A stretch of DNA of 38,708 nt from a virus (lineage: Duplodnaviria; Caudoviricetes): positions 1-38,708 of IMG/VR virus record IMGVR_UViG_3300023095_000006; one strand, 5' to 3'. Below are positions 1,567 through 26,890 of the stretch, piece after piece. The notes beneath the pieces were generated by a model. It did not search any database. It was not told where the DNA came from and saw only the letters and a list, made by a program, of their open reading frames with translations. Both the position numbers and the translations under genes were made by a program. Position 1 is the stretch's first letter. Every line of letters starts with the position of its first letter.

Positions 1567-1581
1567 TTGTTCTCTCTCCGA

Positions 1582-2406
1582 TTATGGGATATTTAATTCG
1601 ATTACAGCAATTCCGCCGATTACTTGATTTGACTCTCTCCAAATTGCTTGAGTGGCAGGAATCAAAATAGTATTTCCGCCGTCTGACACACTTGTAAACG
1701 CTCCAAGCTGAGTGTTTGCACCGTTTGCAGCTACACGCAGATAAACTGCACTGTTTGCAGTAACAACCACTTCGGGCACAACGTAGATACGGCCTTGCGT
1801 TAGTGTAGGAGCCACTTGACCTTTATAGTAAGGAGAAGGCAGGCCGCTAGTAACAGTCAAGTTTTGGCCTTGTGGTGGTATCCAGTTGGCAGTTTGGTTA
1901 TAAATTCTTTGAGTAATCCCAAAAAATGTGCCTGAAACACCCGCTGCATTCGTAGTAGTTGGCTGTGATGCGCCTCCGGTAACTGCTGAGCTAGTGATAA
2001 CTGTTGCTGTGCCGGGAGAGCTAATAATTGTTAAAACTAGATTTCCTGAACCACCAACAATTGCTGACTCAACACCTGCAATCTGTGATAGCTCGCCTGC
2101 AATTGCTTGCATAGTCGCTAAATGTGATGTCGCATATGTGACAGGAGCAATAGCAACACCGTTTACAGTTGCGTTAAAAACGTTTCCTGTAATTAAAGCA
2201 GTGCTAAGCGTGATCGTGCCTGTGTTGATGCGTGGGAGCATAATTGCGTATTCTGCATTCAATGGGCGCATAACGCCTAATGCCGCAGGAATTGTCTCAA
2301 GGCAGACAGGAGATAGTTTGTTGTTAAATCCGCAATCTGCTGGACGTCCAGGGACGCCAATTGGCATATTGTAGGGATAACTATTTTGAAATGATGCATT
2401 ATTCAT
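1582..2406 (-). CDS. Capsid decoration/cement protein with an inserted ~95-aa domain
   Basis: Lies between protease and capsid. GVPGRPAD, FFGIT and GRIYV..VYLR motifs are typical of decoration proteins. Residues ~59-156 are an insertion. Confidence 0.75.
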   Translation of the reverse strand: MNNASFQNSYPYNMPIGVPGRPADCGFNNKLSPVCLETIPAALGVMRPLNAEYAIMLPRINTGTITLSTALITGNVFNATVNGVAIAPVTYATSHLATMQAIAGELSQIAGVESAIVGGSGNLVLTIISSPGTATVITSSAVTGGASQPTTTNAAGVSGTFFGITQRIYNQTANWIPPQGQNLTVTSGLPSPYYKGQVAPTLTQGRIYVVPEVVVTANSAVYLRVAANGANTQLGAFTSVSDGGNTILIPATQAIWRESNQVIGGIAVIELNIP

Positions 2407-2421
2407 CTGATATGCCCTCTG

Positions 2422-3591
2422 TTATTTGCATAGTTGCGATTGATTTTTGATCATATTTGCTCTCGCATCTACTGCAAGATAACCAGTTGTTTGAGCATCA
2501 GCACGGCCTAGCGCTACGCTTGATGAAACATTGTCGCAATTTACTTTTTTGCTAGTCGATTTCTCGTCTACGATAGTGTCAAACATCGCTTCTACATAAA
2601 TGTCGCTTTTTCCATCTAAATTAATCGATTTGCGGCATTCTGAAATGATCGTTTTTTTAATATCGATTGCATTCATAGAATCTAGATTTGAAGTTTTTGC
2701 TTTTCCTAGCGTCTGTTCTGCAAATTGATAAAGCTTAATTCTTTCATTAACAGCTTTTTTAAATGCTGCTGAATCCATATTAGTGCTCATATTCATCATT
2801 GCTGAGGATTTAACTCTATCGCGCATTGAGTCGCGTTCAGCTTCTGAGCGTTCAAGCTCTTTTCTAGCATTTGCTAGCTCTGCTTTTTGCTCGTCTAGTT
2901 CGCGTCGTACGCGTTCCATTTCGTCCGTTAAATTACGTACGTTTGCTTCTAAATGATCGATATGATCGGCAGCGCTTTCTTCAATGAAAAGCTCGTCATT
3001 ATCAATTTTAATTTTACGTTTTGCCATTTCTGGAACCTCTTTTATAAATTCTTCTGCATCTAAACTATCTAGAGCTATGCGCGCTTCAGAGCCTGCGCGG
3101 GCTTTATCAACTATAGCGAGATGATTATAGCGTACATTCGTTTGTCTAGCATCGTAATCATCGCCATTATAGTTTCCGGGCGTTTCATCTAAATCAACTA
3201 GATAGCCTAGTGATAGCTCGCGACGATTATTATTTTTTATTGCATTAACTGTCTCATGATCTGTAATTACCATGTTTGCTAATACAAAGTCGCCATTTTT
3301 TTTGATTGTTTCGCCTGTAAAACCGACAGCTAGTCGTTTGTAGTTTTCGGCTGTGACTAGTCTTTCGTTTGGATGGCCGTTAGTGACAGGTATTAACTGC
3401 ATAGAAGAAATGCTTTCATCGTTCCATACGTCGTCCGGGTGTCTTAGCTCGCGTCGTAAAGATCCGTCAGCATTGCGATAATTGAAAATGCCTGTACGCG
3501 TCACGATAGCATTTGCGCGTATGTAGCCTTCTTCAGTGATAACAGCATCGCCTTGGACTGAACCGCGATCGAATCTCGCTACATCTTTCAT
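2422..3591 (-). CDS. Prohead protease/scaffold (DUF2213)
   Basis: TEEGYI, RTGIFNY, PVTNGHP, ELSLGY and YNHLAIVDKARAG motifs; coiled-coil C-terminal scaffold region. Confidence 0.92.
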   Translation of the reverse strand: MKDVARFDRGSVQGDAVITEEGYIRANAIVTRTGIFNYRNADGSLRRELRHPDDVWNDESISSMQLIPVTNGHPNERLVTAENYKRLAVGFTGETIKKNGDFVLANMVITDHETVNAIKNNNRRELSLGYLVDLDETPGNYNGDDYDARQTNVRYNHLAIVDKARAGSEARIALDSLDAEEFIKEVPEMAKRKIKIDNDELFIEESAADHIDHLEANVRNLTDEMERVRRELDEQKAELANARKELERSEAERDSMRDRVKSSAMMNMSTNMDSAAFKKAVNERIKLYQFAEQTLGKAKTSNLDSMNAIDIKKTIISECRKSINLDGKSDIYVEAMFDTIVDEKSTSKKVNCDNVSSSVALGRADAQTTGYLAVDARANMIKNQSQLCK

Positions 3592-3617
3592 TGATAATCC
3601 TGAATGATTATGCTAGT

Positions 3618-4577
3618 TTAAAGACCATCAAATACGCCCTCAAGTATACCCAGAGGGACACAACGACACTGAACGTCTTGTGAAGTATGCGATAAAGTTC
3701 CGCCGATCGTTGAGCGATTTTCCCATTTCTGAGACTGCTCATTAAAATAAACGGTAGGATCAGACCAACGGCATCTTTTGCCTTGCATTACTCTATGATC
3801 AGCTCGCACGCGTTCATCATTAGACGTCTGCCATATGTAATCGGTCACACCTAGCTCGGTTTGACGCAATTTAGTAAGCGAGCCGTTGAGCTTAGTTGTT
3901 TGATCCCTTGCAATCAACTTAGCATGCCTTCTAGTAATTCCAAAAGATTTTTCTATATCATCTGTAATATAGTCTAAACTTGAACCTTCCTGCAAACCAC
4001 GTTGAATGATTCCACTGACTCGTTCTAGCTCATTTTCAGTCATATTATCGATTAATTGCGCATTTTGATTAGCGAATAGCTCTAGCTGAGTTTCTAGCCA
4101 TGGCTCTTCTAGAAATATGTCTACGCCTAGGACTGAATTAGTAGTTTTTCTGTACTGAACTTGATTGAATCGAGCAATTTGCAAAGCTATGACAGTTGAT
4201 GAATTGATAGCGCGCGACTGCGGTTGCTCTAATAGCTGAGCAATAATTAGCAGTGTGTCATTGAGATCGCCAATTATGTCATCTATTAGTGAATCCATAT
4301 TTGAGAGCTTGCGATTAGCTGCTAGCTCTGCCGGTGTTGAAATGACTGGATCAGGATTATGAATCGTTGCGCCGAGTAGCCAGCCTGGGATTTTCGGCAA
4401 TAGCTGTTCTGAAATAGTTTTACGAATCTGAAAAGTATAAGCGTAAAGCGAGGCGATATATTCTCGCTCTGAAGCATGCGGGAACAACCATTTCGGCGAG
4501 TGTTTGAACTTTTTTAGCTGTCCATTCTTCTTTGTGTGTCGAGCTTTTAGCTGAGCTAGAAATGTTTTTGAAGGCAT
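3618..4577 (-). CDS. Minor head morphogenesis protein (Mu gpF / SPP1 gp7 family)
   Basis: AKLIARDQTTKLNG, YIWQTSNDERVRADH and QCRC motifs. Start moved to ATG 4577 because a small upstream ORF ends at 4582. Confidence 0.9.
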   Translation of the reverse strand: MPSKTFLAQLKARHTKKNGQLKKFKHSPKWLFPHASEREYIASLYAYTFQIRKTISEQLLPKIPGWLLGATIHNPDPVISTPAELAANRKLSNMDSLIDDIIGDLNDTLLIIAQLLEQPQSRAINSSTVIALQIARFNQVQYRKTTNSVLGVDIFLEEPWLETQLELFANQNAQLIDNMTENELERVSGIIQRGLQEGSSLDYITDDIEKSFGITRRHAKLIARDQTTKLNGSLTKLRQTELGVTDYIWQTSNDERVRADHRVMQGKRCRWSDPTVYFNEQSQKWENRSTIGGTLSHTSQDVQCRCVPLGILEGVFDGL

Positions 4578-4581
4578 AAAA

Positions 4582-4746
4582 TTACGGGGTAGTGAGAAAT
4601 GGCACTTCTTTAGTTTCTCGCGAGATGAATTCACTAGGATCTTCATTTAGCCAGTTGTATGCGTACTGATAATCCTGCGTAACTGCAACTATACGCATAC
4701 GAGCATCACAGCCATTAAGATAATATTCTATGAGAACTATTGCCAT
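4582..4746 (-). CDS. Small hypothetical protein (54 aa)
   Basis: Not in ORF track. MAIVLIEYYLNGCDARMRIVAVTQDYQYAYNWLNEDPSEFISRETKEVPFLTTP fills the gap tightly (3 nt after the previous stop, 4 nt before the next ATG). Confidence 0.6.
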   Translation of the reverse strand: MAIVLIEYYLNGCDARMRIVAVTQDYQYAYNWLNEDPSEFISRETKEVPFLTTP

Positions 4747-4749
4747 TCT

Positions 4750-5058
4750 TTAAACTTTTTGTTTTTGTAAAAAATCCCATGCACGATCTATTGCATAACG
4801 GAAAGATAGAATTTTATTTTCCAATTCACAGATAAATTGAATGATTGAGCTCATAAAAAGCATTTTTAATTCATATGAATATATCTTGCCGTCCTTAAAT
4901 TCTTTAAAATTTATAGAGCAATATTCATGAATTTTACCCGTACAATCAGTGATATAAATTTCATAAATGTTTTCATCTGCTTGAGAGTCATCAATTTCAT
5001 AAGAAATAATGTGATCTAAATTATAAAATTTGCCGGTCTGTGCTTCAATTATTCTCAC
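4750..5058 (-). CDS. Hypothetical protein, AT-rich insertion in head module
   Basis: 102-aa ORF with GTG start immediately after the portal stop. Confidence 0.65.
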   Translation of the reverse strand: MRIIEAQTGKFYNLDHIISYEIDDSQADENIYEIYITDCTGKIHEYCSINFKEFKDGKIYSYELKMLFMSSIIQFICELENKILSFRYAIDRAWDFLQKQKV

Positions 5059-5061
5059 TTC

Positions 5062-6531
5062 CTATCTCACTACAATTATTTCGTTATCATCGTCATCGCT
5101 AGGCCCGATAGCAGCTTCAGGCGGCATTTCTTTAATCTCTTGCGCTTTCTGATATTCAAGATCTGCGATTTCATCAGGGTCGTAGCCATTTTCACGAGCT
5201 TTGACATCGATTAGCGTATTCATTGACCAGCGATCGCCACCGAAGCGAGAAATAGCTACTTCATTTGCGTCGAGCACTCCACGATCAATATAAATCGCAT
5301 CTGTTTCAGCAACTGTGCGACGCATCGCTGCTTCTTGCTCTTCTGTATTCTGCCAGAGCGGTGCGAATTGAATTGACCAGTTTTCAGGCTCAACGCCGTT
5401 GAATGGCCCGTTGATTGAGCGCATTAAATAGTAAGTGAGCTTCTCAAGCACAGGTTTGAGCTTCATTTCTTGATATTGTTTAATCATATCATAGTAATTT
5501 CGTGTCTCTGAATCTCCTGTAGCATTAAGTCCGGCAGGGGAGCGACCAAAAAGCAGTGTTGCAGGTATTCCAGTGACTGAACAGACTGAAAGCATAAAAC
5601 GATCAAGCATTTCGCTAAGACCCGCTACGTTCGTAGATAGCTTCTCGAATGATTCCTCACCGTCCAAAACCATCATTCCTTGCGCACCTTTTGTCATATT
5701 AGCAAAATTAAGCCTGCGCATTAACAGATTTTCATTTTCGCTGCATGATGTTGATATCATCTGACTAAGGCCGGGGATTTTTATGACTCCATTTACGAAG
5801 TCGTGCATGATCGTGGACATATTTCCGAAAGCTGCACCCAGATTTTTGAGTTCTTCGTAAATCGGAACGATTGCAGAATCACACCAGCCGTTATTGCGAT
5901 TACGCTCGCGCGGTGACAATGTGCCCCAATCCATGCGCAATATACGACTGTGATGCACTAGAAACGTGTTTCCAGTCCATGAGTCATTAATTTGATAAAA
6001 ATCCGGACAACCATAATTGCAGCTATTGAAATCATTGCAGATATAATCACGTTGAACAACACATTGATAGCGGTCATACACTTGCATCCATGCGATTTCT
6101 TGAATGTTATTTTCATTTACAGGCATGTCAAGAGGCCTGCCATCCACAATGCCTAACAGAATAACTGCGCCACCGTAGAGCCTAGACCACTGGATTAATT
6201 GAGTGATTTTAGAGTAGGCTTGCATTTCTTCGAGCTGTGAAACAATGGCACCTTCGGGGTCTCCATCAACCTCCCATCCTTGCCTTGTCATATCACTAGC
6301 AACAATGTCAATAATGCGCCGTGTGATACCGCTTGCAGCATATAAATCATCAAGCTCAATCAATGAAAATACTCTGCAGGCTGCGAAAAATGTTCCAGTG
6401 GCTTTATCGCGTCCGCCTTGACCGAGTCCGGTATAACCGTTCATCCATGAGTCAGAACGTATGCGCTCGACTTTCGTATCGATCGATTTTGCGCGACTAA
6501 ACATCTGTTTAATTTGATTGAACATTATCAC
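5062..6531 (-). CDS. Portal protein (DUF1073)
   Basis: 489 aa after terminase; DSWMNGYTGLG, WSRLYGGA, VHHSRIL and IPATLLFGRSPAGLNATGDSE motifs. Confidence 0.92.
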   Translation of the reverse strand: MIMFNQIKQMFSRAKSIDTKVERIRSDSWMNGYTGLGQGGRDKATGTFFAACRVFSLIELDDLYAASGITRRIIDIVASDMTRQGWEVDGDPEGAIVSQLEEMQAYSKITQLIQWSRLYGGAVILLGIVDGRPLDMPVNENNIQEIAWMQVYDRYQCVVQRDYICNDFNSCNYGCPDFYQINDSWTGNTFLVHHSRILRMDWGTLSPRERNRNNGWCDSAIVPIYEELKNLGAAFGNMSTIMHDFVNGVIKIPGLSQMISTSCSENENLLMRRLNFANMTKGAQGMMVLDGEESFEKLSTNVAGLSEMLDRFMLSVCSVTGIPATLLFGRSPAGLNATGDSETRNYYDMIKQYQEMKLKPVLEKLTYYLMRSINGPFNGVEPENWSIQFAPLWQNTEEQEAAMRRTVAETDAIYIDRGVLDANEVAISRFGGDRWSMNTLIDVKARENGYDPDEIADLEYQKAQEIKEMPPEAAIGPSDDDDNEIIVVR

Positions 6532-7883
6532 CTTGCTAGTGCAGCTAGATTATAGCTCGGTTCGTTTATCATCATGAATGCGCCTGACAAGCTGTCGATT
6601 TGATCATCGTGAGAACCTTCAGGGAAGTTTTCAATCTCTTTAAAAAATTCATCATTCCACGCAGCTCGCAGTACTTTTATGTTTCCCGCTTCTGCTTGAG
6701 CGCTCACGGGTTTAGCGCGCGTAACTTTGTCTTTAGTGACTCGATTACGCTTCACATTAAAGCCTTGTAAAAAGCGCGTGAGATGCTCTGCTTCGCTTAT
6801 TCCAGCCTGACCCGGGTCTTCCTCAATACCTATGCGCACATTAATTCCGTCGCGTATCGCTGTATTTCTGATCACAGTCTGAACGCCAAGGGGACTATCT
6901 TGAATCCTTACAATATCAGTTATATATAAAATATTGTTAGCATCTTTTTCTAGCTTTATTCCTACGGTAAAATCAGGATCGTTAGTTTCTGTTTTTCTTG
7001 TAGCTGCTCTATCCCAATAGCGGATTTTCTCTTTAGTGAGGGGAATTGCATCTATGATTTCGAAGTAGCCTTTTTTAAAATAAAGGCCAGCGCTTGGCTT
7101 TATGTTCCAATTTCCATTTAGCAGGCGTTCTCGCTCTACTCGTGATAATGCATGAAGATTAGCTAAATATCCTGGATCAACTTCTAAAAGTTTTTTATTA
7201 TCAAAAATAGAACCAGGAATAAAAGTAAAAGATTTGGGCAAACAATCAGGGTATTTTTCCTGAAGCTCTTCTTTAGAATCCGCCCATAGCATTTTATCAT
7301 TTAGCATGATAAACCATCTAAGCACTCCAGAACGTGCGGGGATTGCATAGCCCGTTTCTGGATCTATCCACCAATCAACTAGCTCTCTAACCCATGAGTC
7401 TGCATCAGGGTTACAGGTAGCTCGTACATATGGTTTAACGCCACACATTGACCGGTTTCTTGAGAGCATGTAAAAAAATTGATTTCTTGAAAAATGTGTT
7501 AATTCGTCAAAAATTAACAATGTGATTTGCGAGCCCTGCCACCCGTAAATGTCTGATTCATGATCGAGATGACTATATTTATAATGAGCCCCACTAGGAA
7601 AATTCCATTCCAGGGTTGTTTCTTTTGGCACTCCTCCGAAATCTCGAAACATTTCTTGTGAGCCTTGCCAAAGTCCTCCCGGACTTTTGAGCTGAACCGC
7701 GTTTTTTCTAAAAATAGCGCATGTGAATCCAGGCTTATCATGATTCCAAAGACTTTCTAGAAGTAAGCAATAAGTTTTCCCAACGCCAGCGCCACCACCC
7801 ATTAGGCAGATTTGAGCTTTAGTTTTTAATGCTTCTGTTTGAGGGCCGGGCTGAGGTCGATAAACTTTTCTATCTTTCGCCAT
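6528..7883 (-). CDS. terL: Terminase large subunit
   Basis: PQPGPQ, Walker A GGGAGVGKT, Walker B LIFDELTHF, TCNP, and nuclease motifs WDRAA and HDDQIDS. Confidence 0.95.
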   Translation of the reverse strand: MAKDRKVYRPQPGPQTEALKTKAQICLMGGGAGVGKTYCLLLESLWNHDKPGFTCAIFRKNAVQLKSPGGLWQGSQEMFRDFGGVPKETTLEWNFPSGAHYKYSHLDHESDIYGWQGSQITLLIFDELTHFSRNQFFYMLSRNRSMCGVKPYVRATCNPDADSWVRELVDWWIDPETGYAIPARSGVLRWFIMLNDKMLWADSKEELQEKYPDCLPKSFTFIPGSIFDNKKLLEVDPGYLANLHALSRVERERLLNGNWNIKPSAGLYFKKGYFEIIDAIPLTKEKIRYWDRAATRKTETNDPDFTVGIKLEKDANNILYITDIVRIQDSPLGVQTVIRNTAIRDGINVRIGIEEDPGQAGISEAEHLTRFLQGFNVKRNRVTKDKVTRAKPVSAQAEAGNIKVLRAAWNDEFFKEIENFPEGSHDDQIDSLSGAFMMINEPSYNLAALAR

Positions 7884-8391
7884 TGTCGGGAAGCTCTAAA
7901 ATAGCTTTTTGTGAAATTTCAACTGTGGAATTCATATCCACTCTTTCTCGATTTCCCCATTTCTCAGGATTTTTACGCGCTAGGTATTCTTTACCCGCTT
8001 GCCAGTTTCCAGGAATGCAATCTCTCCAATGCTGTAAAATCTCATCTTCACATGCTGACTCTGCTTTTTCAACGGCGTCCAGAAATATTAAATATTTACA
8101 GGTATGCTGAGAGGCTTCTCTTGATTCTCTACCCTTTCTAGTCCATGCACAGAAGCTAGAATATGAAATATTTGCTAACATACATGAATTTTCGTAGGTA
8201 TTTCCACGTCGAATAGCTGCAATAATTATAGGAGCTTTTTCTTCTAATTTTGAAGGCTGCCCAACGGGTTTAGCAAATAAAGAAGTATCGCGCTTTACCT
8301 TAATTCCCTTTAATGCGGAAGGTGGTTTGTCTTTTTTTGCTGTGACTTTGACTTCTTCATTAATTTTAGGTTTTAGCTTTGGCTTGGCCAT
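7870..8391 (-). CDS. terS: Terminase small subunit
   Basis: Immediately upstream of terL; GQPSKL, HTH-like segment and WQAGKEYLARKNPEKWG motif. Confidence 0.85.
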   Translation of the reverse strand: MAKPKLKPKINEEVKVTAKKDKPPSALKGIKVKRDTSLFAKPVGQPSKLEEKAPIIIAAIRRGNTYENSCMLANISYSSFCAWTRKGRESREASQHTCKYLIFLDAVEKAESACEDEILQHWRDCIPGNWQAGKEYLARKNPEKWGNRERVDMNSTVEISQKAILELPDNGER

Positions 8392-9151: not shown

Positions 9152-9487
9152 TCAGCCTATTATTTCATAAATTTCGAAAGCATTTTTAACGACTTCAATT
9201 TTGATCTTGTAAATCTCTTCAACTTGCAATCTTTTCATTTTTCCGATAGCAAGATCTTTGCCCTTTGCTTCTATGAAGATTACGCCTTTTTCGCTAAATA
9301 TTGCAAAATCGATCTTATGAATGAAAGGGCCGGGCAGATCGAATGCGACTTGACGTAAGAAAAAATCTATTTTCTTATCTTTTACAGCTTGCTGTAGTAC
9401 TAGATAGCAATTGCGTTCAAGCAGTGATGGGAATTTTATGCCTTCGCTTTCGCATCGCTTAGCTTTGTATTTGCTAGACATCTTCAT
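9152..9487 (-). CDS. PD-(D/E)xK endonuclease, DUF1064-like (possible Holliday junction resolvase)
   Basis: KYKAK..GIKFPSLLE..RQVAFDL..IDF..IEAKG motifs. Confidence 0.8.
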   Translation of the reverse strand: MKMSSKYKAKRCESEGIKFPSLLERNCYLVLQQAVKDKKIDFFLRQVAFDLPGPFIHKIDFAIFSEKGVIFIEAKGKDLAIGKMKRLQVEEIYKIKIEVVKNAFEIYEIIG

Positions 9488-10807: not shown

Positions 10808-11218
10808 TTAAAATGGCAAATTGTTTTCAGGCTCTGGATATTCGAGCGGCAAGCTGTTTGATTGGTTATTCGAGTAATATGAAGGTTGAGCTTGCTGCTG
10901 CGGTGCTTGAAATGCTGAATGTTGCGCTTGCGCTTGAGATAAGATGCGATTGACATTTTCTTCAACGAATGATTCGATATGCTTTTTCTCAAAAGAGCTG
11001 TCAAATTCAAATGCGTCTTCGTAATTGTCTTTTCCGTCTTGTCTTGTTCCGCATTTATAAGCTGCTTTAGTGATCCAGAGAGAATTAGTGTTAACGCTAG
11101 GCGAGACTTTAAATCGAAAAACAAATCTGCGATCGAGTCTAACTGTAGCTATGCCGATATGCTTTTCGCCTGGCGTTTTGACAAATTCTAAAAATTCTAA
11201 TCCATTGCTTGGCATCAT
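10808..11218 (-). CDS. Putative single-stranded DNA-binding protein (SpoVG/PC4-like fold)
   Basis: Beta-rich N-domain, Q-rich linker and acidic tail ending in LPF, the classic SSB C-terminal tip. Confidence 0.65.
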   Translation of the reverse strand: MMPSNGLEFLEFVKTPGEKHIGIATVRLDRRFVFRFKVSPSVNTNSLWITKAAYKCGTRQDGKDNYEDAFEFDSSFEKKHIESFVEENVNRILSQAQAQHSAFQAPQQQAQPSYYSNNQSNSLPLEYPEPENNLPF

Positions 11219-11794: not shown

Positions 11795-12544
11795 TTAGCC
11801 GGGCATGAATTGATTAAATTTCTTTGCTGCTTCGTAATCATCATCGGGATTATATGAAACAGGCTTATAATTAAAAAATTCACATAAGTCTTTAAAATAA
11901 TTTAAATTCACTACTCCAATTTCGCCGTATTTGTTTTTAGAAAAAATAATCTCTGCCATGCCAGGCTTATCATTTGCATCGTAGTATTCTCGCCTAAGAA
12001 TAAACATAACAACATCTGAAATATCCTCAATTCCGCCACAGTCTCTGAGATCTGTAAGCGTAGGCCTATGACCCGGTCTTTCCTCAACCTTTCTTGAAAG
12101 AGGAGAAGAAAAAACAATGGCTATTTCTTTATCTAAACAACATTTTTTTAACTTTAAAAGAATTGCTTTTTTTCGTTCATAAGAATTTTCAAAAATTTCT
12201 TTATCGTTAATGCATTCTATCGAATCTATAAAAATCACATCACCTTTTTCACAGCAAATTGCAATATGATCTATAATTTCATCTATCTGCCTAAACTTTC
12301 TATCGTCAAGTATTTTTGAATGATCAATGCCTTGTTTAAAACTCAATATTTGTGTTTTTGAATTCTCTAAAGAAATATAAATATATTTCTGCTTTATTTC
12401 TTCCATTCTCTGCATCATAGTCAGAATCAAAGCAGTTTTCCCCATTGCAGGCCTTGCGCCAATGCAAACCAGGCTTGGGCATTCAAATCCCTGACCTAGC
12501 ATAATATTTAAATCTTTAAATCCTGTTTGTGCTTTCATTTTCAA
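11795..12544 (-). CDS. Truncated, degenerate DnaB-like helicase (C-terminal RecA domain only)
   Basis: TGFKDLN, GARPAMGKT, SLE, IFID and LSRKVEERPGHRP..DLRDCGGIE..RREYYD..KNKYG; no N-terminal domain. Confidence 0.85.
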   Translation of the reverse strand: MKMKAQTGFKDLNIMLGQGFECPSLVCIGARPAMGKTALILTMMQRMEEIKQKYIYISLENSKTQILSFKQGIDHSKILDDRKFRQIDEIIDHIAICCEKGDVIFIDSIECINDKEIFENSYERKKAILLKLKKCCLDKEIAIVFSSPLSRKVEERPGHRPTLTDLRDCGGIEDISDVVMFILRREYYDANDKPGMAEIIFSKNKYGEIGVVNLNYFKDLCEFFNYKPVSYNPDDDYEAAKKFNQFMPG

Positions 12545-12808: not shown

Positions 12809-13061
12809 TTTCTTTAACTCCTTCAATTGCATGTTCAATTTTATGAATTAGCTCTTGCTTTTCGTCCATAGCTGTAATTAAAAGATCGGATAAATAAAAA
12901 ATTATTTCTTCAAAAGAGTAGCATATGTCTTTTGCTTTGCCATTTATTTGCCATCGAATATTTTTATCTACTAAGATTATTTGAATGTTATTATGCGAGC
13001 CTTGGACAACTGAAATTTCTTTCGCGTTTAAGACATCCAAAGTCTCTTTGTCTAGAATCAT
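12792..13061 (-). CDS. Hypothetical protein
   Basis: 89-aa ORF coupled to the rep stop by a 4-nt overlap. Confidence 0.6.
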   Translation of the reverse strand: MILDKETLDVLNAKEISVVQGSHNNIQIILVDKNIRWQINGKAKDICYSFEEIIFYLSDLLITAMDEKQELIHKIEHAIEGVKENDNNT

Positions 13062-14005
13062 AATTTTCCTTTATAGTTTTCAATATAATTATTTAAAGCA
13101 TTTGTGAACGCTTGAGGTTGTAAATTTAGAAAGAGAGTTTCGGGCGCCTCTTTTAAATTCTTCTTTAACTTAACAACAGTTTTAAGAATCAATAATCCGG
13201 TAAGATTGTGTTCTTGCTTCATGCATTCTGCATATATTTTATTCTGCCATGTGTTTGTTTCTCCTTGAGCATAATTGTGCTTAATATAACCTTGAAGCAT
13301 TTGCTCATAACTTTTTTTAGGTTGAATTCCTTTTTTTAATTGCTCTTCAAAATACACCACAGTTCCCCTTAGCCTATGCATGTCATTTTCTGAGTATTTA
13401 GCTATGCTTCTGCGCATATGAAGAGAAATGCAAGTTCCGTCAGGGAATTTATACGTATCAGGATCAAAAAAAACGATATCGGAAGATTGAAAAGAAGAAC
13501 GATCATCTGTAACGTTATTATCGTTCTTCTTAGGTATCTTCTCTTCGTTTTCTTTATATATATGAGGGGTTTGCCCCTTTCGGACAATCCGGTTTGCCCC
13601 TTTCGGACAATCCGGTTTGCCCTTTTGTGACAAACTGTAATCTTTTTTTAAGAGTCCATAAATCTCTAATATTTTCTCATCAATCAATCTAAAATGACGT
13701 TTATTGCCTAATTGAAAGTTTTCCTGTTCTATGAGTCCATTTTCTACAAGAATTTCAATTGCAGTCAGTTGTTCTTTTCTGGAAAGTGACGTTCGGTCTT
13801 CAACTTTTTCGATAGTCATGTAAAACCATCCTTCTCCATAGCGCTGGTCACTTACAAGCTCATCCCTAGTAGTATGATATTGCCTTCTCTGCGCAAGCTC
13901 GCTAAGCAATACAGATGCGTTTAAAGACTTCAGATGCTTTGCAATTGATCGGCTGTAAATGCCGTAATCTTGTTGATAAAGAAAAAAGAGGGGATCTATT
14001 GACAT
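13058..14005 (-). CDS. Replication initiator (lambda O-like, N-terminal wHTH, internal iterons)
   Basis: SLNASVLLSEL..GWFYMTIEKVEDRTSLSRKEQLTAIEILVENGLI wHTH; internal 23-bp repeats; start ATG 14005 after AAGGA. Confidence 0.8.
   Translation of the reverse strand: MSIDPLFFLYQQDYGIYSRSIAKHLKSLNASVLLSELAQRRQYHTTRDELVSDQRYGEGWFYMTIEKVEDRTSLSRKEQLTAIEILVENGLIEQENFQLGNKRHFRLIDEKILEIYGLLKKDYSLSQKGKPDCPKGANRIVRKGQTPHIYKENEEKIPKKNDNNVTDDRSSFQSSDIVFFDPDTYKFPDGTCISLHMRRSIAKYSENDMHRLRGTVVYFEEQLKKGIQPKKSYEQMLQGYIKHNYAQGETNTWQNKIYAECMKQEHNLTGLLILKTVVKLKKNLKEAPETLFLNLQPQAFTNALNNYIENYKGKL
13568..13636. repeat. Replication origin iterons: 3 x 23 bp GGTTTGCCCCTTTCGGACAATCC
   Basis: Two exact copies (13568-13590, 13591-13613) and one 18/23 copy. 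The unit length is not a multiple of 3. An AT-rich tract lies adjacent (13540-13565). Confidence 0.8.
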
Positions 14006-14044
14006 AGTAATTCCTTTTAGTGGAATAACCATTCAAGTAAACAA

Positions 14045-15265: not shown

Positions 15266-15304
15266 TTTTAAATTCCTTTGTTAATCTATCTATGTAAAGC
15301 GGAT

Positions 15305-15517
15305 TTACATCTGTTTTTTCTGAGCTAAAATTTCTAATGACATTTTTCCTGCGATGATCATTTCTGTTAGAGCTTTGTGAGACTCTATTAATTTATCTAG
15401 CAAAGTTGAAAAATTTATTTTTGAATCTGAAGCCATTTCATCTGCTTCTGCAAGCTTTTCAGACATCAACTGGCCTTTTCTGCCAAATTCTTCTCTAAAA
15501 TCTTCTAGCGTTTTCAT
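15305..15517 (-). CDS. Hypothetical helical protein
   Basis: 70-aa ORF with a 4-nt overlap to the upstream gene. Confidence 0.6.
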   Translation of the reverse strand: MKTLEDFREEFGRKGQLMSEKLAEADEMASDSKINFSTLLDKLIESHKALTEMIIAGKMSLEILAQKKQM

Positions 15518-16008
15518 TTTTGATCTCCGAAAATATCTATCTGCGAATTTAATTTGAACGCTTCTTCTAAAGCTGCTCTAATCATGTCATTTGTCGACAC
15601 TGTGCTGTTTGTCTCTATCGATTTTTTGTTAGCTTGTAGGCGAATTAAAGCGTAAAGATCACGATTTATGCGAAAGCATACGCTCACGCCTTCACTTCCT
15701 ATGATTTTTCGCTTAGCGTTATTCGAGTTGACGTGTTTTTTTGCGCCAGATTTTATGTAACACCAAGAAAAGTTAAACTTTGAGAATGCTTTATTTGATT
15801 CGTCTAAAAGCTTCATGCCGTTGCACATTTCCGGCATAGCGCCGACATCATTGAAAAAAGCGTCGAATGTTGACCATTCCTCAGGCCATGTGATGCCTCG
15901 CTTGCCGTAGTGTGAGAATTTTGGATCCGTCGGCTTCGTGCATGCTCGTTTCATTCGCGCCCAGGCTGAATATTCTCGCAGATATTTTTCTCTCAGACTC
16001 ATTGTCAT
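15514..16008 (-). CDS. Degenerate HNH-endonuclease-derived domain fused to a ribbon-helix-helix
   Basis: EYSAWARMKRAC..YGKRGI..EW..FDAFFNDVG resembles phage HNH proteins; C-terminal VSVCFRINRDLYALIR..STNDMIRAALEE is RHH-like. Confidence 0.65.
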   Translation of the reverse strand: MTMSLREKYLREYSAWARMKRACTKPTDPKFSHYGKRGITWPEEWSTFDAFFNDVGAMPEMCNGMKLLDESNKAFSKFNFSWCYIKSGAKKHVNSNNAKRKIIGSEGVSVCFRINRDLYALIRLQANKKSIETNSTVSTNDMIRAALEEAFKLNSQIDIFGDQK

Positions 16009-16462
16009 TTTCTCCGAAATTGAATTCTAGTTGATCATTTTGTACGGGATATTTTTCTAGCACGCAACCGCGCATTAATTTTGAAAATGTTTTTCCAGTG
16101 TCTTTTGCCAGCTTTTTAATTGCGATAAAATTCTCGACCGGAATTGTAAAGCTAACTTGCACATAGTCGCGCGGGTGCCATAGCCTTACTAGCGTAGTCT
16201 GTTTGATACAGCGTGGGTTTAGATCGCTGTATTTTCGATGCACTGCGCCGTGGCATGTATTGCATAGCCATACGACTTTTAACGGGTTTCCGTAGTCTGT
16301 GTGATGCGCAACGGTTTTGTATTGCACCCTACAGCGTTCGCAGTGAGAAGCGCGCGTTAATTCGCCGCGTTTAATCATATCATTAGTGATGCGTCTAGCT
16401 GTTGCTTTCTGCTTATATTCTATAAAATCTTTATTACTGATTTTGTATTTTAGAGTTGTCAT
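15881..16462 (-). CDS. HNH-like zinc-binding domain fused to a ribbon-helix-helix
   Basis: CERC..AHHTDYGNPLKVVWLCNTCHGAVH, then VQVSFTIPVENFIAIKKLAKDTGKTFSKLMR. Confidence 0.7.
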   Translation of the reverse strand: MTTLKYKISNKDFIEYKQKATARRITNDMIKRGELTRASHCERCRVQYKTVAHHTDYGNPLKVVWLCNTCHGAVHRKYSDLNPRCIKQTTLVRLWHPRDYVQVSFTIPVENFIAIKKLAKDTGKTFSKLMRGCVLEKYPVQNDQLEFNFGENDNESERKISARIFSLGANETSMHEADGSKILTLRQARHHMA

Positions 16463-16531
16463 TTTGATTATTTTGCAATTTCAATTAGCATTATTTATTG
16501 TTTCATGAAACAAATGTGGGAATGTTCATAA

Positions 16532-16759
16532 CTATTTAGCTATGGCATTCTTAAATTGTCCGCCGCGATTTTTTATTTGCGGTTGGACTTCAGAATTAGT
16601 GATAAAAAAAACTTTTCTAGCTATTGTTTCGTCTACAGCTTTGTTTTTTTTAATCGCATAGACAGTGTTGCGATGGCAGCCGATCATTTCAGCGAATTCA
16701 TACATTTTTAAATTATTTTTACGCAGCCATCTTTCTAAAGGAGTTATTTCATTATTCAT
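16532..16759 (-). CDS. Cro/XRE-type HTH transcriptional regulator
   Basis: LERWLRKNNLKMYEFAEMIGCHRNTVYAIKK; start ATG 16759 after GGAG; first gene of the leftward arm. Confidence 0.8.
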   Translation of the reverse strand: MNNEITPLERWLRKNNLKMYEFAEMIGCHRNTVYAIKKNKAVDETIARKVFFITNSEVQPQIKNRGGQFKNAIAK

Positions 16760-16788
16760 TTTATTTTCTCCATTTGCTTTTGCCATAT

Positions 16789-16862
16789 AGCTTATCATAA
16801 ATAATAGTATTTTGCAAATACGTATTTATAACATTGCAAATATCATAAAAATATGCTATGCT
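16789..16862. promoter_or_regulatory. Divergent early promoter pair with palindromic operator
   Basis: Minus: TTGCAA-17-TAAGCT (16817-16789). Plus: TTGCAA-17-TATGCT (16834-16862). Both have extended TG. The palindrome AAATACGTATTT (16816-16827) lies between them. Confidence 0.65.
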
Positions 16863-17401: not shown

Positions 17402-17740
17402 ATGAAAAAACTTTTTACACTGGCATTAGCCTGCGTTATGTCTTTATCAGCATGCAATTTAACTGCGTCTGAAGATGCAAAAATTTACGTGAGAACAGAG
17501 AATGCTTATCAATGCAACAATCATTTTAGAGTGCAGTTAGATAGCGGCGACTGGATCGATGTTGGATCAGTCCACGGCGATCAGCAAGGCGTTTTTGTAT
17601 ATGCATCTTCTATTTTGCAGGGCCCTGATTGCTGGGAAATAGTGCAAGAGAAGACATGGAAATGTAAAAAATGTGGCAATAGCTGGCCTGTGCGTTTTCA
17701 AACATGTCCTAACGCAAATTGCCCCAACGAGTGGAAATAG
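17402..17740 (+). CDS. Exported protein/lipoprotein with C-terminal Cys4 motif
   Basis: GAGGA SD; MKK plus hydrophobic stretch and LSAC lipobox; C-terminal WKCKKCGNSWP..CPNANCP. Confidence 0.75.
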   Translation: MKKLFTLALACVMSLSACNLTASEDAKIYVRTENAYQCNNHFRVQLDSGDWIDVGSVHGDQQGVFVYASSILQGPDCWEIVQEKTWKCKKCGNSWPVRFQTCPNANCPNEWK

Positions 17741-18123: not shown

Positions 18124-18744
18124 ATGAAAAAACAGCAGGACAAAAACGGATATATTCGCGTTACTCAAGTGCTAGCGCCTTTTTCCGATTTCTCGAACGT
18201 CCCTGCGGAGACTCTTCGAGCGGCGTCAGAACGCGGAACGCTAGTACACGAACTATGCGAATTATATGCGCTGGACTCATTAATAGAGCCTATTCCAGAT
18301 AATTGCAAGGGTTTTTTTGAATCATTTAAAAATTGGTTTGATTACAACGTTCACAGAGTCATTAACGTAGAAGAACGTCTCTATTCTGAAGAGCAGTCCT
18401 TTGATGAGTTGTTAGAAAATGGCGTGCATTTAAGCGAAGATCATTATTTTAAAAATATGAATTTAACTGGTCAATACGATTTGCTATGCACGCTGAAAGA
18501 TGCGCCTGATAAAACAATTCTAGTTGATTATAAGACCCCTGAAAGCTCTTCAAAAACTTGGCCCTTGCAGTCCGCTGCTTATAAAATGCTATTGCGTGAA
18601 ACACGCGGTATTAGCGTAGATCGTCGAATAGCGCTTATGCTAAAAGAAGACGGATCAGATGCTTTCGCATTAGAATTCACTGATTCGAATGACGAGCGTA
18701 ACTTCATGAAAGCCTACTGTCTGCACATTTATTTCAATTCGTAA
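18124..18744 (+). CDS. PD-(D/E)xK exonuclease (RecB/Cas4-like)
   Basis: RVTQVL, ERGTLVH, EERL, GQYDLL, LVDYKT and LQSAAY motifs. Confidence 0.85.
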   Translation: MKKQQDKNGYIRVTQVLAPFSDFSNVPAETLRAASERGTLVHELCELYALDSLIEPIPDNCKGFFESFKNWFDYNVHRVINVEERLYSEEQSFDELLENGVHLSEDHYFKNMNLTGQYDLLCTLKDAPDKTILVDYKTPESSSKTWPLQSAAYKMLLRETRGISVDRRIALMLKEDGSDAFALEFTDSNDERNFMKAYCLHIYFNS

Positions 18745-18782
18745 TCGTCATATTTTCAATGATTTATGTTCTTTTATTGTTA

Positions 18783-18829
18783 AATGAACATATTCAATCC
18801 TTGTGTGAATATGTTCATTATGTTATATT
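18783..18829 (+). promoter_or_regulatory. Promoter overlapped by a 14-bp perfect inverted repeat (operator)
   Basis: AATGAACATATTCA-9nt-TGAATATGTTCATT; TTGTGT-17-TATATT with extended TG. Confidence 0.6.
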
Positions 18830-18924
18830 AGTGGTATCAAAGCAAGTCTCACTCGCAGCAAATAGCTAACAGTTTGTAGCAGCTAAGATGACAAACACTA
18901 ACATAAAAAACAGAGAGATTGAAA

Positions 18925-19188
18925 ATGAAAAAGCAAATAATTTTTAAAGGTGAATCATATGACTTCGATAAATTTGAAAATGAAATAGAAGTTTTTGAAT
19001 TGAATGATGAAGAGCTAGACGAATATTTTGACTTACTTCCTAAATACTCATCTGATTTTTCAAAAGAAACAATTACTTGGACGGGTGATGAATACATTAA
19101 AGGCTATAAAACTTTCTTAAATGATGAGCGTTATGAAGATGATGAAATTTTAGAGATGAGAAATTTTTATAAAACTAATTTTAACTAG
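18925..19188 (+). CDS. Highly acidic small protein
   Basis: 24 D/E in 87 aa; first gene after the operator-bearing promoter. Confidence 0.7.
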   Translation: MKKQIIFKGESYDFDKFENEIEVFELNDEELDEYFDLLPKYSSDFSKETITWTGDEYIKGYKTFLNDERYEDDEILEMRNFYKTNFN

Positions 19189-19201
19189 GAATGTTTTTAA
19201 A

Positions 19202-19345
19202 ATGTTTGATGATTATTTCGATTATGAATCTTTTGAAAATGAGATCGATCCGGGCGACTATTTAGAAGAAATAGATCGCACAGAAGATGACTGCCCAGGG
19301 TGTTCGGGCAGGGGTTGCAATTATTGTTTATGTGTTAATTATTAA
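19202..19345 (+). CDS. Acidic 47-aa protein with C-terminal Cys cluster
   Basis: Not in ORF track: MFDDYFDYESFENEIDPGDYLEEIDRTEDDCPGCSGRGCNYCLCVNY, with an AGGA SD. Confidence 0.7.
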   Translation: MFDDYFDYESFENEIDPGDYLEEIDRTEDDCPGCSGRGCNYCLCVNY

Positions 19346-19359
19346 AAAAGGAAAATAAA

Positions 19360-19614
19360 ATGAAAAAGTTAATTTTAATTATGTGTTGCTTAATTTCTGT
19401 TTGTCATGCAGATAAATTAGATGAGCAAGTTTTAGCAAATATGAGCTTTGAAACTAGGCAACAAATATTTATTAATGCTGAAAAAGAATGGCCCGGCAAT
19501 TATAAAATGATGGTTTATGAAGCTGAAAGACAATTTGAAGCATATATAAAATATGAAAAAGCAAAAATGATTATTCTTGTTAAACATGCTAATGATTTTA
19601 ATACGAAAAATTAA
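19360..19614 (+). CDS. Secreted small protein
   Basis: Signal peptide MKKLILIMCCLISVCHA; AEKEWPGNYKMMVYEAERQFEAY motif. Confidence 0.7.
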   Translation: MKKLILIMCCLISVCHADKLDEQVLANMSFETRQQIFINAEKEWPGNYKMMVYEAERQFEAYIKYEKAKMIILVKHANDFNTKN

Positions 19615-19678
19615 AATTAAATTGAAAATGCAATAAAAAGTTTTTAAGTAATTTTAAATTATTATAAGGAGTTTGAAA

Positions 19679-19840
19679 ATGAATAGAGGCGGATTTAGCT
19701 GGAAAACATTCCTAGGAATGACAGCGCAAAAAAGAAAATTATCAAAGTCAATCGGCGTGCCTTTAACAAAATCCGGCAGAAAATACGCTGCGGGCAATGG
19801 CAATATTTGGGCAATGATTATTAATTTATTATTTAAATAG
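19679..19840 (+). CDS. Small basic protein of a widespread phage family (GFSWKxxLG...GxPLTKSGR)
   Basis: Not in ORF track: MNRGGFSWKTFLGMTAQKRKLSKSIGVPLTKSGRKYAAGNGNIWAMIINLLFK, with an AAGGAG SD. Confidence 0.7.
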   Translation: MNRGGFSWKTFLGMTAQKRKLSKSIGVPLTKSGRKYAAGNGNIWAMIINLLFK

Positions 19841-19855
19841 AAAGGTAATATAAAA

Positions 19856-20113
19856 ATGGAATGTAGAGCACCGACTGAATACGAAAATGAGAGAATTAAA
19901 GAAATTTTAAATGATATATTTAAACTATTAAATGAAAAATTAACAAAAGAAGAAATGGAAGATTTTAATTTGCCTGCAAATATGCTAATTACTGCATTAA
20001 TAAATCTTTCTTTTCCTTTCATTAGAACGATTGAATCTAAAAAAAAATTTGCTTTTCAGGTTGCAGCAGGAATGATTAAAATTTTTGAAGCAAAGGAAAA
20101 AAATGGAAATTGA
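19856..20113 (+). CDS. Hypothetical protein
   Basis: 85-aa ORF with AAGG SD. Confidence 0.6.
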   Translation: MECRAPTEYENERIKEILNDIFKLLNEKLTKEEMEDFNLPANMLITALINLSFPFIRTIESKKKFAFQVAAGMIKIFEAKEKNGN

Positions 20114-20720
20114 TTTTGATAAAATAAATGATGAGATTTTAGTAAATGACATCAATCACATTGACGATACGATAGAATTTACAAAATCATTGATGATGCG
20201 AGATGCGGGAGCGGGGGAGTTTTTAGAAAAACTAGTCGATTTTAAAATTATTGATCGATCATCAGCTAAAGAATGTCTCACGCTCTCGCTTCAAGCGCGA
20301 AAAATCAGAAAAGAGCTTGATAAACGACGGCTAGAAATCATTAAGCCGTATTTTGAATTTCAAAAATCAATCAATGCTTTTTCTAAAAATCTGAAAGAGC
20401 AGCTTGAAAAAATTGAAAATGATCTTAAAGAAAAACTAGTCGCTTATGTAGAGAAAAGTAAAGAGAAAGGCTTAGAATTTCTGCTCAATAAATCAATAAA
20501 AGTTGATGATGGCAAATTCTCAACAAAAAAAGAATGGCTGTTTAAGCTCGAAAACGTTGATAAAATTCCACGCGAGTTTCTTTGCGTTGATAAAATAAAA
20601 ATAAAAAAAGCAATCGATCAAGGTGTTAGAAATATTCCGGGAATTTACATTTATGAGACTGATAAATTTTCAATTCGCGTGAATAATTCAATTGAAAAAC
20701 AAATAGAGTTTGATGTATAA
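20103..20720 (+). CDS. Coiled-coil recombination-associated protein (gp157/Gam-like architecture)
   Basis: Coiled coil, then KEWLFKLENVDKIPREFLCVD..GVRNIPGI; adjacent to ERF; start ATG 20103 after AAGGA. Confidence 0.65.
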   Translation: MEIDFDKINDEILVNDINHIDDTIEFTKSLMMRDAGAGEFLEKLVDFKIIDRSSAKECLTLSLQARKIRKELDKRRLEIIKPYFEFQKSINAFSKNLKEQLEKIENDLKEKLVAYVEKSKEKGLEFLLNKSIKVDDGKFSTKKEWLFKLENVDKIPREFLCVDKIKIKKAIDQGVRNIPGIYIYETDKFSIRVNNSIEKQIEFDV

Positions 20721-20768
20721 TATCGCTTGTAGAGACAATATGAACGCGATTACACAAGGAAAAATATT

Positions 20769-21482
20769 ATGAATACTGAAAATAAATATCAGTCAGAATC
20801 AATTGATTTGCTAGCTATATCATTAGCTAAAGCACAAGGAAAGATCACTGTAGCTATTGAAGATAAAAAAAACCCGCATTTTAAATCGACATATTCAAGT
20901 TTAAATAGCATTTGGGACGCGTGCAGGTCTGCAATTTCTGAAGAAGGCCTTTCAGTAACTCAAATTATGCAGCCAAGCGCTACATCAATCGATTTAATTA
21001 CTATTTTGCTGCATGAGAGCGGGCAGTGGATTAAATCAGTTTTGCCTATTCCGTCTTTACAGCTAACACCGCAGCAACTAGGCAGCGCAATTACTTATCT
21101 GCGTCGTTATAGTTTATCTGCAATCGTTGGAGTTGCGCCGGGCTTTGAAGATGATGGCGAAAGTGTTAGAAATGAAAAGATTCAATCGACACCGTCAGTT
21201 AAAGCTTTATCAAAATCTGAAATTGATTCTTTTGTTAAGCGTAATTCAATATTTGAAAAAACGCAAATTCATGAATATTTAAATCACGTTGCAGAATCTA
21301 AAAAAATGAGCTTTGATGAATGTTTGCAGTTATGTTGCAAAAACGAAAAATCCTTTTTGCAGGCTTTTAATGAACGTAAAGCCAGACAAAAAAGATTAGA
21401 AGAGGAAAGCACAAAGAATGAAACTGAATGTAAAGCGGATTTACATGCAGAAGAAACACAATCTGAACAAGAAAATCAATAA
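20769..21482 (+). CDS. erf: ERF-family single-strand annealing recombinase
   Basis: LAKAQ, NPHFKSTYSSL, LLHESGQWI, QQLGSAITYLRRYSL and EDDG motifs. Confidence 0.92.
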   Translation: MNTENKYQSESIDLLAISLAKAQGKITVAIEDKKNPHFKSTYSSLNSIWDACRSAISEEGLSVTQIMQPSATSIDLITILLHESGQWIKSVLPIPSLQLTPQQLGSAITYLRRYSLSAIVGVAPGFEDDGESVRNEKIQSTPSVKALSKSEIDSFVKRNSIFEKTQIHEYLNHVAESKKMSFDECLQLCCKNEKSFLQAFNERKARQKRLEEESTKNETECKADLHAEETQSEQENQ

Positions 21483-25200: not shown

Positions 25201-25610
25201 AGATTGCCTGTTACTCCGTTCGCTAAATTTATCTGATTCCAAGCAGGAGTATTTCCAGGCCCTGAATTTGATAAATATCTAGAAACATTCGTATCGATAG
25301 CTAGTTTTGAAAGAACATTCGGTGCAGATGCATAGAGAAGATCACCTGTGGCGTAGCTTGTCTGACCAGTCCCGCCGAATGTTGGCCCTATGGGAGATCC
25401 ATTCCATGTGCCTGTTGTGACAGTGCCTAAAGTCGTTATTGAAGCTTGTCCAACATAGTTAGTCGCGATATCAATAACGGGATTAGCGCCCCCGGTAGAC
25501 GTAATGCGATTCGGCGTGCCGAAAACCGCTTCAACATTCCCGCCGCCGCCTCCACCATCTCCCGTTCTGTCAAATTTTGATGTAAACTGGTTGATGATGT
25601 AGCGCGCCAT
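22281..25610 (-). CDS. Long repetitive tail fibre/adhesin with C-terminal C1q-like domain
   Basis: Five ~142-aa repeats, a 14-residue-periodic NxxxG beta-solenoid block, and C-terminal [18 protein letters not shown]. Confidence 0.85.
22740..25535 (-). repeat. Intragenic ~426-bp repeat units in the fibre gene (starts at 25535, 25109, 24683, 24374, 23270)
   Basis: Repeated [11 protein letters not shown]..[14 protein letters not shown]..GDx[17 protein letters not shown]. There is a 35-bp exact DNA match between 23050-23084 and 24160-24194. Confidence 0.9.
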
Positions 25611-25643: not shown

Positions 25644-25904
25644 TTATGAAAAATAGCTAGCCCTCTGCGACCAGGCATACTTAAACCCGACACCCCCTAG
25701 CGGAAGCCTGCTTCTTACAGCTATATCACCCACGTACTCAGTTTTTTGAACGTACCATACAAGCGCATCTACTGAAGCATCTACTATCGTAGTCCAGCCT
25801 ATGTAGATTACATTCCCATTTCCATCACTCTCATAACGACGCTCTAGCATGTCATCGTTATCTAAAATGCCTGCAAATTGCTCAAAATTCGTATAGGGAT
25901 TCAT
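25644..25904 (-). CDS. Small virion protein, putative fibre adaptor
   Basis: VIYIG..WYVQK..FKYAWSQRASY motif directly upstream of the fibre gene. Confidence 0.55.
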   Translation of the reverse strand: MNPYTNFEQFAGILDNDDMLERRYESDGNGNVIYIGWTTIVDASVDALVWYVQKTEYVGDIAVRSRLPLGGVGFKYAWSQRASYFS

Positions 25905-26254: not shown

Positions 26255-26263
26255 AAATAAAGC

Positions 26264-26884: not shown

Positions 26885-26890
26885 AAAAAC

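Follow-up and report, generated by a model that had tools for sequence, protein, structure and literature searches.

Introduction

The gene at positions 11795-12544 of an uncultured virus genome codes for a DnaB-like protein with a motif of chlamydial type, and it raises the question of whether a tailed phage may infect chlamydiae. The stretch of DNA analysed, called the window here, is a single virus contig of 38,708 bp, which according to its record is linear and 93% complete; it holds 58 open reading frames (ORFs). According to excerpts of a 2025 review, all known chlamydiaphages are small single-stranded DNA Microviridae (PMC12474301).

Phage genes have been reported on chlamydial plasmids, which are referred to below as phage-plasmids where they carry a virion module. 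A phage origin was assigned to 7% of the Criblamydia plasmid proteins (Bertelli 2014, PMC4208316), and the accessible parts of two other papers describe 20 phage proteins on plasmid pRm2 of R. massiliensis (Bou Khalil 2016, PMC4791399) and a "phage group", a putative prophage, on the Criblamydia plasmid and pRm2, its genes being listed in Data S2C (Kostlbacher 2021, PMC7846284). Excerpts of further work mention Protochlamydia CRISPR spacers without a match (Bertelli 2016, PMC5010888) and unclassified viruses predicted on Chlamydiales, listed in Supplementary Data 5 of a 2025 single-cell study (PMC12644861). In the main texts of the mostly open-access literature searched, neither free tailed chlamydial phages nor a parS site of chlamydiae were found to be described; the excerpt of a parS paper (PMC11318664) contains nothing on chlamydiae. 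Because tailed-phage genes on chlamydial plasmids are already published in the three plasmid papers, the novelty is limited to the free form without ParA.

Genome organization of the window

PHROG and Pfam scans of the 58 ORFs, which are intact, revealed the full gene plan of a tailed phage. The features are as follows.

628-8391, minus strand: head and packaging module (PHROG/Pfam and comparison with the Criblamydia plasmid)
628-1566, minus: major capsid protein (PF09950)
1582-2406, minus: cement protein (PF22758)
2422-3591, minus: protease of the head module
3618-4646, minus: Mu-F-like protein of the head module
5062-6531, minus: portal protein of the head module
6528-7883, minus: large terminase TerL, directly adjoining the portal gene
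7870-8391, minus: TerS, head module
9152-9487, minus: Holliday junction resolvase (DUF1064), common to the Criblamydia plasmid (47%)
10808-11218, minus: probable single-strand DNA-binding protein with a SpoVG-like lead, an acidic/Phe tail at the C-terminus and a homologue on the Criblamydia plasmid
11795-12544, minus: DnaB-like protein truncated to the C-terminal motor domain with its RecA fold (Pfam DnaB_C, 249 aa)
13058-14032, minus: replication initiator of the Lambda-O type, located upstream of the DnaB-like gene
15293-15309, unstranded: palindrome copy 1, one mismatch from TGTAAAGCnGCTTTACA, parS-like, overlapping the stop of ORF 15305-15517
15514-16798, minus: HNH-like pair (15514-16008 and 15881-16462) and Cro-like HTH gene (16532-16798), common to phage-plasmids
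17402-17740, plus: small signal-peptide/Cys-rich protein, member of a family in many environmental chlamydial genomes
18124-21482, plus: recombination module of exonuclease (18124), a presumed Gam-like coiled coil (20085) and ERF annealase (20769)
21429-21445, unstranded: palindrome copy 2, the same 17 letters as copy 1, inside the 3' tail of the ERF gene
22281-25610, minus: repeat-rich tail fibre of 1109 aa, its C-terminus matching the C1q-like cluster of the phage-plasmids
25644-38611, minus: contractile tail module (PHROG/Pfam and comparison with the Criblamydia plasmid) with terminator (38075), sheath (35881), HNH insertion (35207), tube (34770), chaperone, short tape measure (33012), Dit-like, plug, hub, spike, wedge, baseplate J (28140) and fibre-proximal genes

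The capsid, portal and large terminase belong to the families PF09950, PF06381 and PF03237/PF17289, and the sheath, tube and baseplate J, hub and spike families are represented by phrog_205, PF11863, PF11681, PF04865, PF22759 and PF18352. A contractile tail, as had been proposed from the sequence alone, is confirmed by genes for sheath, tube, baseplate wedge, hub and spike, and tail terminator. The cement (PF22758), hub (PF22759), plug (PF22479), tube (PF11681) and sheath (PF11863) families are common to the myophage modules of the Pam3/E217/KPP10 type. For the protein at 10808-11218, the SpoVG lead corresponds to 17% of the cluster members in the ESM Atlas.

Both ends of the window lie inside neck genes. 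The same two genes adjoin each other in the relatives, and a contig of 39,666 bp codes for the same proteins as the window. This allows us to infer that about 1 kb of neck genes is missing, with no space left for an integrase or a partition cassette. No ParA, recombinase, primase-helicase or cargo was found in the window, where tblastn was run for ParA, its partner and the primase-helicase with nine members each. The PHROG and Pfam scans of the window ORFs also detected no endolysin or holin family and no CI-like repressor; a weak PHROG label of "endolysin" on 32352-33011 was rejected, being outscored by tail/Dit-like matches. As far as its genes tell, the window is a near-complete, complete-looking contractile-tailed phage of the myovirus type. 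A search of sequencing runs placed a relative of about 90-95% identity in two watershed metagenomes of one study and listed no RNA sequencing runs holding the window.

Several smaller features were also recorded. Short hydrophobic ORFs are located at 21476, 16920 and 17744. The HNH-type gene 35207-35815 sits between the sheath and tube genes, an insertion site that is also filled in genome G151. The cement (1582-2406) and baseplate J (28140-30128) proteins cross-match, and 35881-38070 is listed with them, suggesting a shared plug-in domain. A perfect 16-bp palindrome at 16498-16513, with the Cro-like gene on one side and the HNH-like pair on the other, is a candidate operator.

The truncated DnaB-like protein

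The peptides LSRKVEERPGHRP (12062-12100) and RREYYDANDKPGMAEII (11945-11995) are both coded on the minus strand within ORF 11795-12544, in agreement with the two DnaB peptides that the sequence-only reading had located within 11924..12100. The Pfam match to DnaB_C has an E-value of 6.5e-39. It had also been claimed that the motif is typical of chlamydial DnaB and unlike that of most bacteria. This holds for the sequences compared: of 30 Chlamydiota DnaBs, 22 have both halves of the motif pair, 23 have the first and 28 the second, whereas the pair is present in none of 77 others. The latter number derives from a random 1/64 sample of GTDB with 558 DnaB loci, which is not a census. Among the best-scoring 80 of these, three carry the pair and all three are chlamydial, L016 by its title and L017 and L018 by tree; the genome of L018 (G003) is also part of the Chlamydiota phylum sample. 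The motif pair is diagnostic of Chlamydiota within the samples examined.

The best named matches of the protein are helicases of Waddliaceae and Waddlia, and its best plasmid match by score is the DnaB of a Simkania plasmid. Bit scores separate the two groups, with 127-153 for 30 chlamydial DnaBs versus 85-112 for 75 others, both sets being top slices; L019 and L020, two short paralogues that have no motif, reach 127 and 116 bits. In a 41-row tree, the short DnaBs together with Chlamydiota are split from 18 other bacteria with support of 100/99, and the short DnaBs of the window's type are sister to Chlamydiota DnaB (97/91) and not nested in it. This tree omitted 55 rows, including four motif-less short paralogues and the longest branches of the short family. 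In a quick tree of 96 rows, the motif-less L019, L020 (from a Gastranaerophilales genome), P0055 and P0072 share a stem with the short DnaBs, so that long-branch attraction is possible. Of the phylogenetic placement that the sequence-only reading had looked to, the grouping with Chlamydiota against other bacteria is retained, but the position is that of a long-branch sister and not one inside the phylum. For this reason the DnaB-like protein, taken alone, carries less weight than the structural genes do.

The protein consists of the motor domain, with no N-terminal collar domain or linker according to Pfam and the predicted structure. The predicted fold (pLDDT 89) is similar to E. coli DnaB with a TM-score of 0.82. 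Like replicative DnaB helicases, it has the RecA-fold motor domain, the Walker A motif and the catalytic Glu. Unlike them, it lacks the N-terminal domain, and the Walker B context, the motif-3 Gln and the arginine finger are changed. These altered motifs differ from 29-30 of 30 chlamydial DnaBs, the motif-3 Gln being present in 29/30 and the arginine finger in 30/30. The best NCBIfam model, PRK06321, which we take to be the chlamydial DnaB cluster, gives 144 bits against a cut-off of 751. The protein is probably not an autonomous helicase and appears degenerate and likely catalytically dead. The two closest complete relatives of the window, G006 and G007, have no DnaB match, and IMG/VR gave none when it was scanned with the DnaB-like protein as a single query sequence.

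Short DnaB paralogues with the same motif were also seen in chlamydial genomes away from virion clusters (G033:C18:56895-57389, G054:C1:725905-726483 and P0049). A separate paralogue family of about 285 aa (L019, L020, P0054-P0073) has one member in Gastranaerophilales, and the motif is absent in those inspected. Two host DnaB genes contain long in-frame insertions, probably inteins (G139:C1:141129-144014 and G151:C11:41904, with frames of 976 and 647 aa).

Comparison with chlamydial phage-plasmids

The window was compared with plasmid 1 of Criblamydia sequanensis CRIB-18 (NZ_LK031773, 89.5 kb; PMC4208316). Among 72,556 plasmids this one gives the best TerL match (60.4%, 593 bits); the next full-length match is at 35%, and partial Sinorhizobium matches reach 50-55% over about 40% of the length. 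Thirty of the 58 window ORFs match the plasmid, early genes included, and the virion genes of the head and contractile-tail module follow the same order, with identities of 60% for TerL, 57% for the portal and 54% for the capsid. The closest named relative of the window is thus a virus-like megaplasmid of a cultured amoeba-dwelling chlamydia, and since that plasmid is closed, the chlamydial link does not depend on binning.

Related elements were found in other chlamydiae. Capsid matches occur in 11 of 400 Chlamydiota genomes, ten of them at 54-55% (G015 was not scored in the capsid, DnaB and 17402-family counts). Prophage matches in Chlamydiota genomes had been named as a check on the host, and the same gene set is present in 10 of the 400. 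The syntenic head-and-tail module is seen in eight of the ten carriers in the first stretches fetched, in two parts in G110 and as an 8-kb fragment in G281. Five of the 11 matching contigs are circular by assembler-type terminal repeats of 55/77 nt and measure 70-96 kb. Nine carrier contigs have ParA, its partner gene and a primase-helicase, seven have a tyrosine recombinase, and their scanned ORFs include AbiE and metal or small-molecule cargo. The carrier ParA tested has its best matches on Criblamydia (66%) and Protochlamydia (60%) plasmids. All ten carriers have DnaB of chlamydial type (first motif 10/10, second 9/10). A fixed chromosomal locus resembling a gene-transfer agent (GTA) was considered for these clusters and rejected, as the flanks differ and five of 11 contigs are circular. 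In 714 control searches of Planctomycetota, Rickettsiales, Pseudomonadota and Bacteroidota genomes, the large phyla being only sampled, there was no capsid match at 50% or more, and three matches at 29-38% were obtained. Some of the ten carrier genomes may be the published ones.

The TerL matches in the family of G139, which has 129 genomes, include only two of the ten carriers; the carriers therefore belong to more than one family. The carrier capsids (L178-L187, L244) are 93.6-100% identical despite host DnaBs of 61-88% identity, which suggests that the phage-plasmids recently spread between chlamydial hosts.

The window differs from this class. It has no ParA with partner, tyrosine recombinase, primase-helicase, methylase, AbiE or cargo block, all of which are features of the Criblamydia-type plasmids, and it lies outside their range of 70-98 kb, being less than half the size of the Criblamydia plasmid. 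TerL adjoins the portal gene in the window, while cargo splits the two in the phage-plasmids. The window has an O-like initiator, the truncated DnaB and ERF, and the plasmids have RecT. The palindrome described below is present in the window and absent from the plasmids.

Some observations concern the chlamydial genomes themselves. Broken TerL remnants of the phage-plasmid type occur at G141:C1:2005388, G157:C3:8201, G325:C4:33612 and G299:C25:14370; three of the four are beside AbiE genes, and the remnant contigs include a 2.28-Mb chromosome. The phage-plasmid cargo (L223-L226, L217, L243-L244) includes resistance to copper and arsenic, numerous GNAT and methyltransferase genes, members of the beta-lactamase and phosphotransferase families and a protein with RHS repeats. 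A 39-kb contig binned in a chlamydial genome (G297:C2) is a more distant myophage, with a capsid at 47%, no ParA and no palindrome.

The free phage clade

At least 120 capsid clusters are as close or closer to the window than the chlamydial elements are, and none has a named host. The 120 best are 55-97% identical to the window capsid and are mostly found on contigs of up to about 43 kb. The 400 Chlamydiota genomes yielded no member of the window's own clade, for which a capsid above 65% identity was required. The IMG/VR genomes G006 (41.9 kb, with terminal repeats) and G007 have the same gene order, 55-79% identity in most virion genes and no ParA, compared with 45-63% between the window and the chlamydial elements.

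Trees of the portal (98/98) and the capsid (97/97) unite the window clade, ParA-less phages of 42-43 kb (G1159 and G1160) and the phage-plasmids. The portal tree gives G1159 as the sister of the phage-plasmids (99/99). The window belongs to a large free clade of about 40-kb genomes which is sister or otherwise related to the phage-plasmids, and is not a member of them. The megaplasmids would then have arisen from free phages by gain of a plasmid backbone; the capsid tree leaves the order open. The best of 50,697 deposited phage records reaches only 36.6% for the capsid. The nearest deposited capsids, those of Faecalibacterium phage Brigit and Erwinia Loessnervirus (35-37%), fall outside the chlamydial clade in the trees.

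A different lineage is represented by G008 (L195-L196), a 37-kb IMG/VR record with terminal repeats, a P22-type portal, an integrase and a full-length DnaB nested inside Chlamydiota. It has a methylase and a resolvase in common with the phage-plasmids and is likely a temperate short-tailed chlamydial phage.

The 17-bp palindrome and the 17402-17740 protein

The window contains two identical copies of a 17-bp palindrome at one mismatch from TGTAAAGCnGCTTTACA and a third site at three mismatches, and shuffled versions of the window gave a mean of 0.31 sites even at three mismatches. The pattern was derived from loci of this analysis, G006 and G007 among them. It is present in 38 of 45 Chlamydiota genomes in 1-5 copies, with zero for a reversed-pattern control, and in none of the ten non-chlamydial genomes that served as controls. 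In G014, the one chromosome tested, four copies between 387.7 and 475.5 kb lie on both sides of the GC-skew switch, which is located at about 445-455 kb. The nearest copy is 48 kb from parB in G014, G018 and G027.

These properties resemble those of chromosomal parS sites, which are 17-bp palindromes, 1-5 per genome, flanking the origin near parB. The palindrome is therefore proposed as a candidate chlamydial centromere site; its sequence differs from what we take to be the Bacillus-type parS consensus. The ParA-less phages carry several sites (window 2, G006 5, G007 5, G1159 5 and G1160 3), and in relatives of the window one lies at the end of the annealase gene. No site at one mismatch or less was found in about 817 kb of 11 phage-plasmid sequences, namely ten MAG contigs, nine of them with ParA, and the Criblamydia plasmid. 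This contrast is partly circular, because the palindrome led to G1159 and G1160, and G006 and G007 helped to define it. Clade members identified by their capsid alone (L002, L004, L005 and L008) have the palindrome too. Among 82 viral loci with an exact copy, only eight carry structural genes of the window's family at 50% or more.

The protein coded at 17402-17740 contains the signal peptide and the motifs VHxDxxG and EKxWKCxxCxxxWP..C as they had been described, and its proposed resemblance to a family of Parachlamydiales genomes is confirmed in the form of an environmental-chlamydial family. A profile (A3) built from 12 chlamydial homologues only matches the window protein at E 7.3e-22. The family is present in 34 of 100 Chlamydiota genomes, often in several copies and on long chromosomal contigs, and is absent from 101 Planctomycetota and 101 Pseudomonadota (0/202). 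A direct search with the protein gave one close cluster and weak matches in 17 of 301 Chlamydiota genomes, and the ESM Atlas gave only leads below 0.9. Another 40.4-kb element, G1163 (L484-L485), has unrelated virion genes, a gene of the 17402 family and two palindromes; it is possibly a third chlamydial phage lineage.

Host and lifestyle

The proposal that the window is a contractile-tailed phage of environmental Chlamydiae is supported by the C. sequanensis plasmid, by the gene set in 10/400 chlamydial genomes versus 0/714 control searches, and by three independent host marks, the DnaB motif pair, the 17402 family and the palindrome. The structural genes are considered the strongest indication of the host. 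We therefore regard it as highly probable that this phage, which has no ParA or integrase and belongs to the free clade of about 40 kb akin to the Criblamydia-type phage-plasmids, infects environmental Chlamydiota.

A host among other protist-associated or aquatic bacteria, with the DnaB fragment, the 17402 gene and the palindromes exchanged inside amoebae and only the phage-plasmid branch infecting chlamydiae, appears improbable. The clade of the window has no named host, most of its virion genes are fairly distant from the chlamydial elements, and the controls cover few phyla. However, three unlinked chlamydial marks would all need to be imported and retained, the palindrome recurs in the clade members found by capsid, and the portal tree places the phage-plasmids among free phages that lack ParA. 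It is scarcely credible that the window is only part of a chlamydial phage-plasmid, or that it is a domesticated cluster resembling a gene-transfer agent. The virion module is common to the phage-plasmids and the record is linear and incomplete, but this reading is already contradicted by the neck genes at the window ends, which adjoin in relatives, by the 39,666-bp contig, by the cargo-free junction of TerL and portal, by the window's own replication and recombination genes, and by the close relative G006, a terminal-repeat genome without ParA.

For the lifestyle of a chlamydial phage, a virulent or carrier-state cycle is preferred with some reservation, because no integrase, ParA, CI-like match or close member in 400 host genomes was found. 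The same phage could instead be a temperate episome, unintegrated and held by host ParB on the parS-like sites, which the phage-plasmids would later have swapped for their own ParA cassette. This is a real possibility, though a lesser one. The presence of palindromes in ParA-less phages and their absence from phage-plasmid sequence are consistent with it, as are the sites around the skew switch of G014, the nearest of which is 48 kb from parB, and the Cro-like gene and divergent early operons of the window. Against the episome stand the partial circularity of the palindrome contrast, the lack of a detected CI-like repressor and the fact that ParB binding is a prediction; no 40-kb element close to the window is binned in the 400 chlamydial genomes.

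In the mechanism that we propose for the chlamydial phage, the particle would adsorb to extracellular elementary bodies and ride into the protist, and the phage would replicate in reticulate bodies. These steps are modelled on the chlamydiamicroviruses (Chp1-4, phiCPAR39 and phiCPG1; Microviridae), with which the window would share the host phylum and, by analogy with excerpts of the 2025 review (PMC12474301), entry through elementary bodies. They are tail-less phages of Chlamydiaceae with 4.5-6 kb of single-stranded DNA, whereas the window is double-stranded DNA of 39 kb (38.7) with tail genes. The O-like initiator would open the phage origin using the host helicase. The truncated DnaB domain would have been taken up from a chlamydia and would serve as a loader or decoy by recruiting or mimicking that helicase, and the two palindromes would bind the host protein that organises the origin, probably ParB.

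A wider scenario can be outlined, which as a whole we hold to be doubtful. A family of well over 100 uncultured tailed phages of about 40 kb would prey on environmental chlamydiae, persisting with no integrase or ParA by means of copies of the host centromere site, to which some members would add an inactive helicase as a decoy. A single lineage would have fused with a chlamydial plasmid backbone to give the Criblamydia-type megaplasmids. These would still be moving as virions between chlamydial families, as the near-identity of capsids across hosts with divergent DnaB suggests.

Gene exchange among the obligate intracellular chlamydiae is described as an open question in the available part of PMC7846284. 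A family of free tailed phages would provide a vehicle for this exchange and would explain where the phage half of the megaplasmids came from, and the palindrome points to a candidate chlamydial centromere site. The question of chlamydial gene exchange thereby becomes testable in a cultured amoeba symbiont, C. sequanensis.
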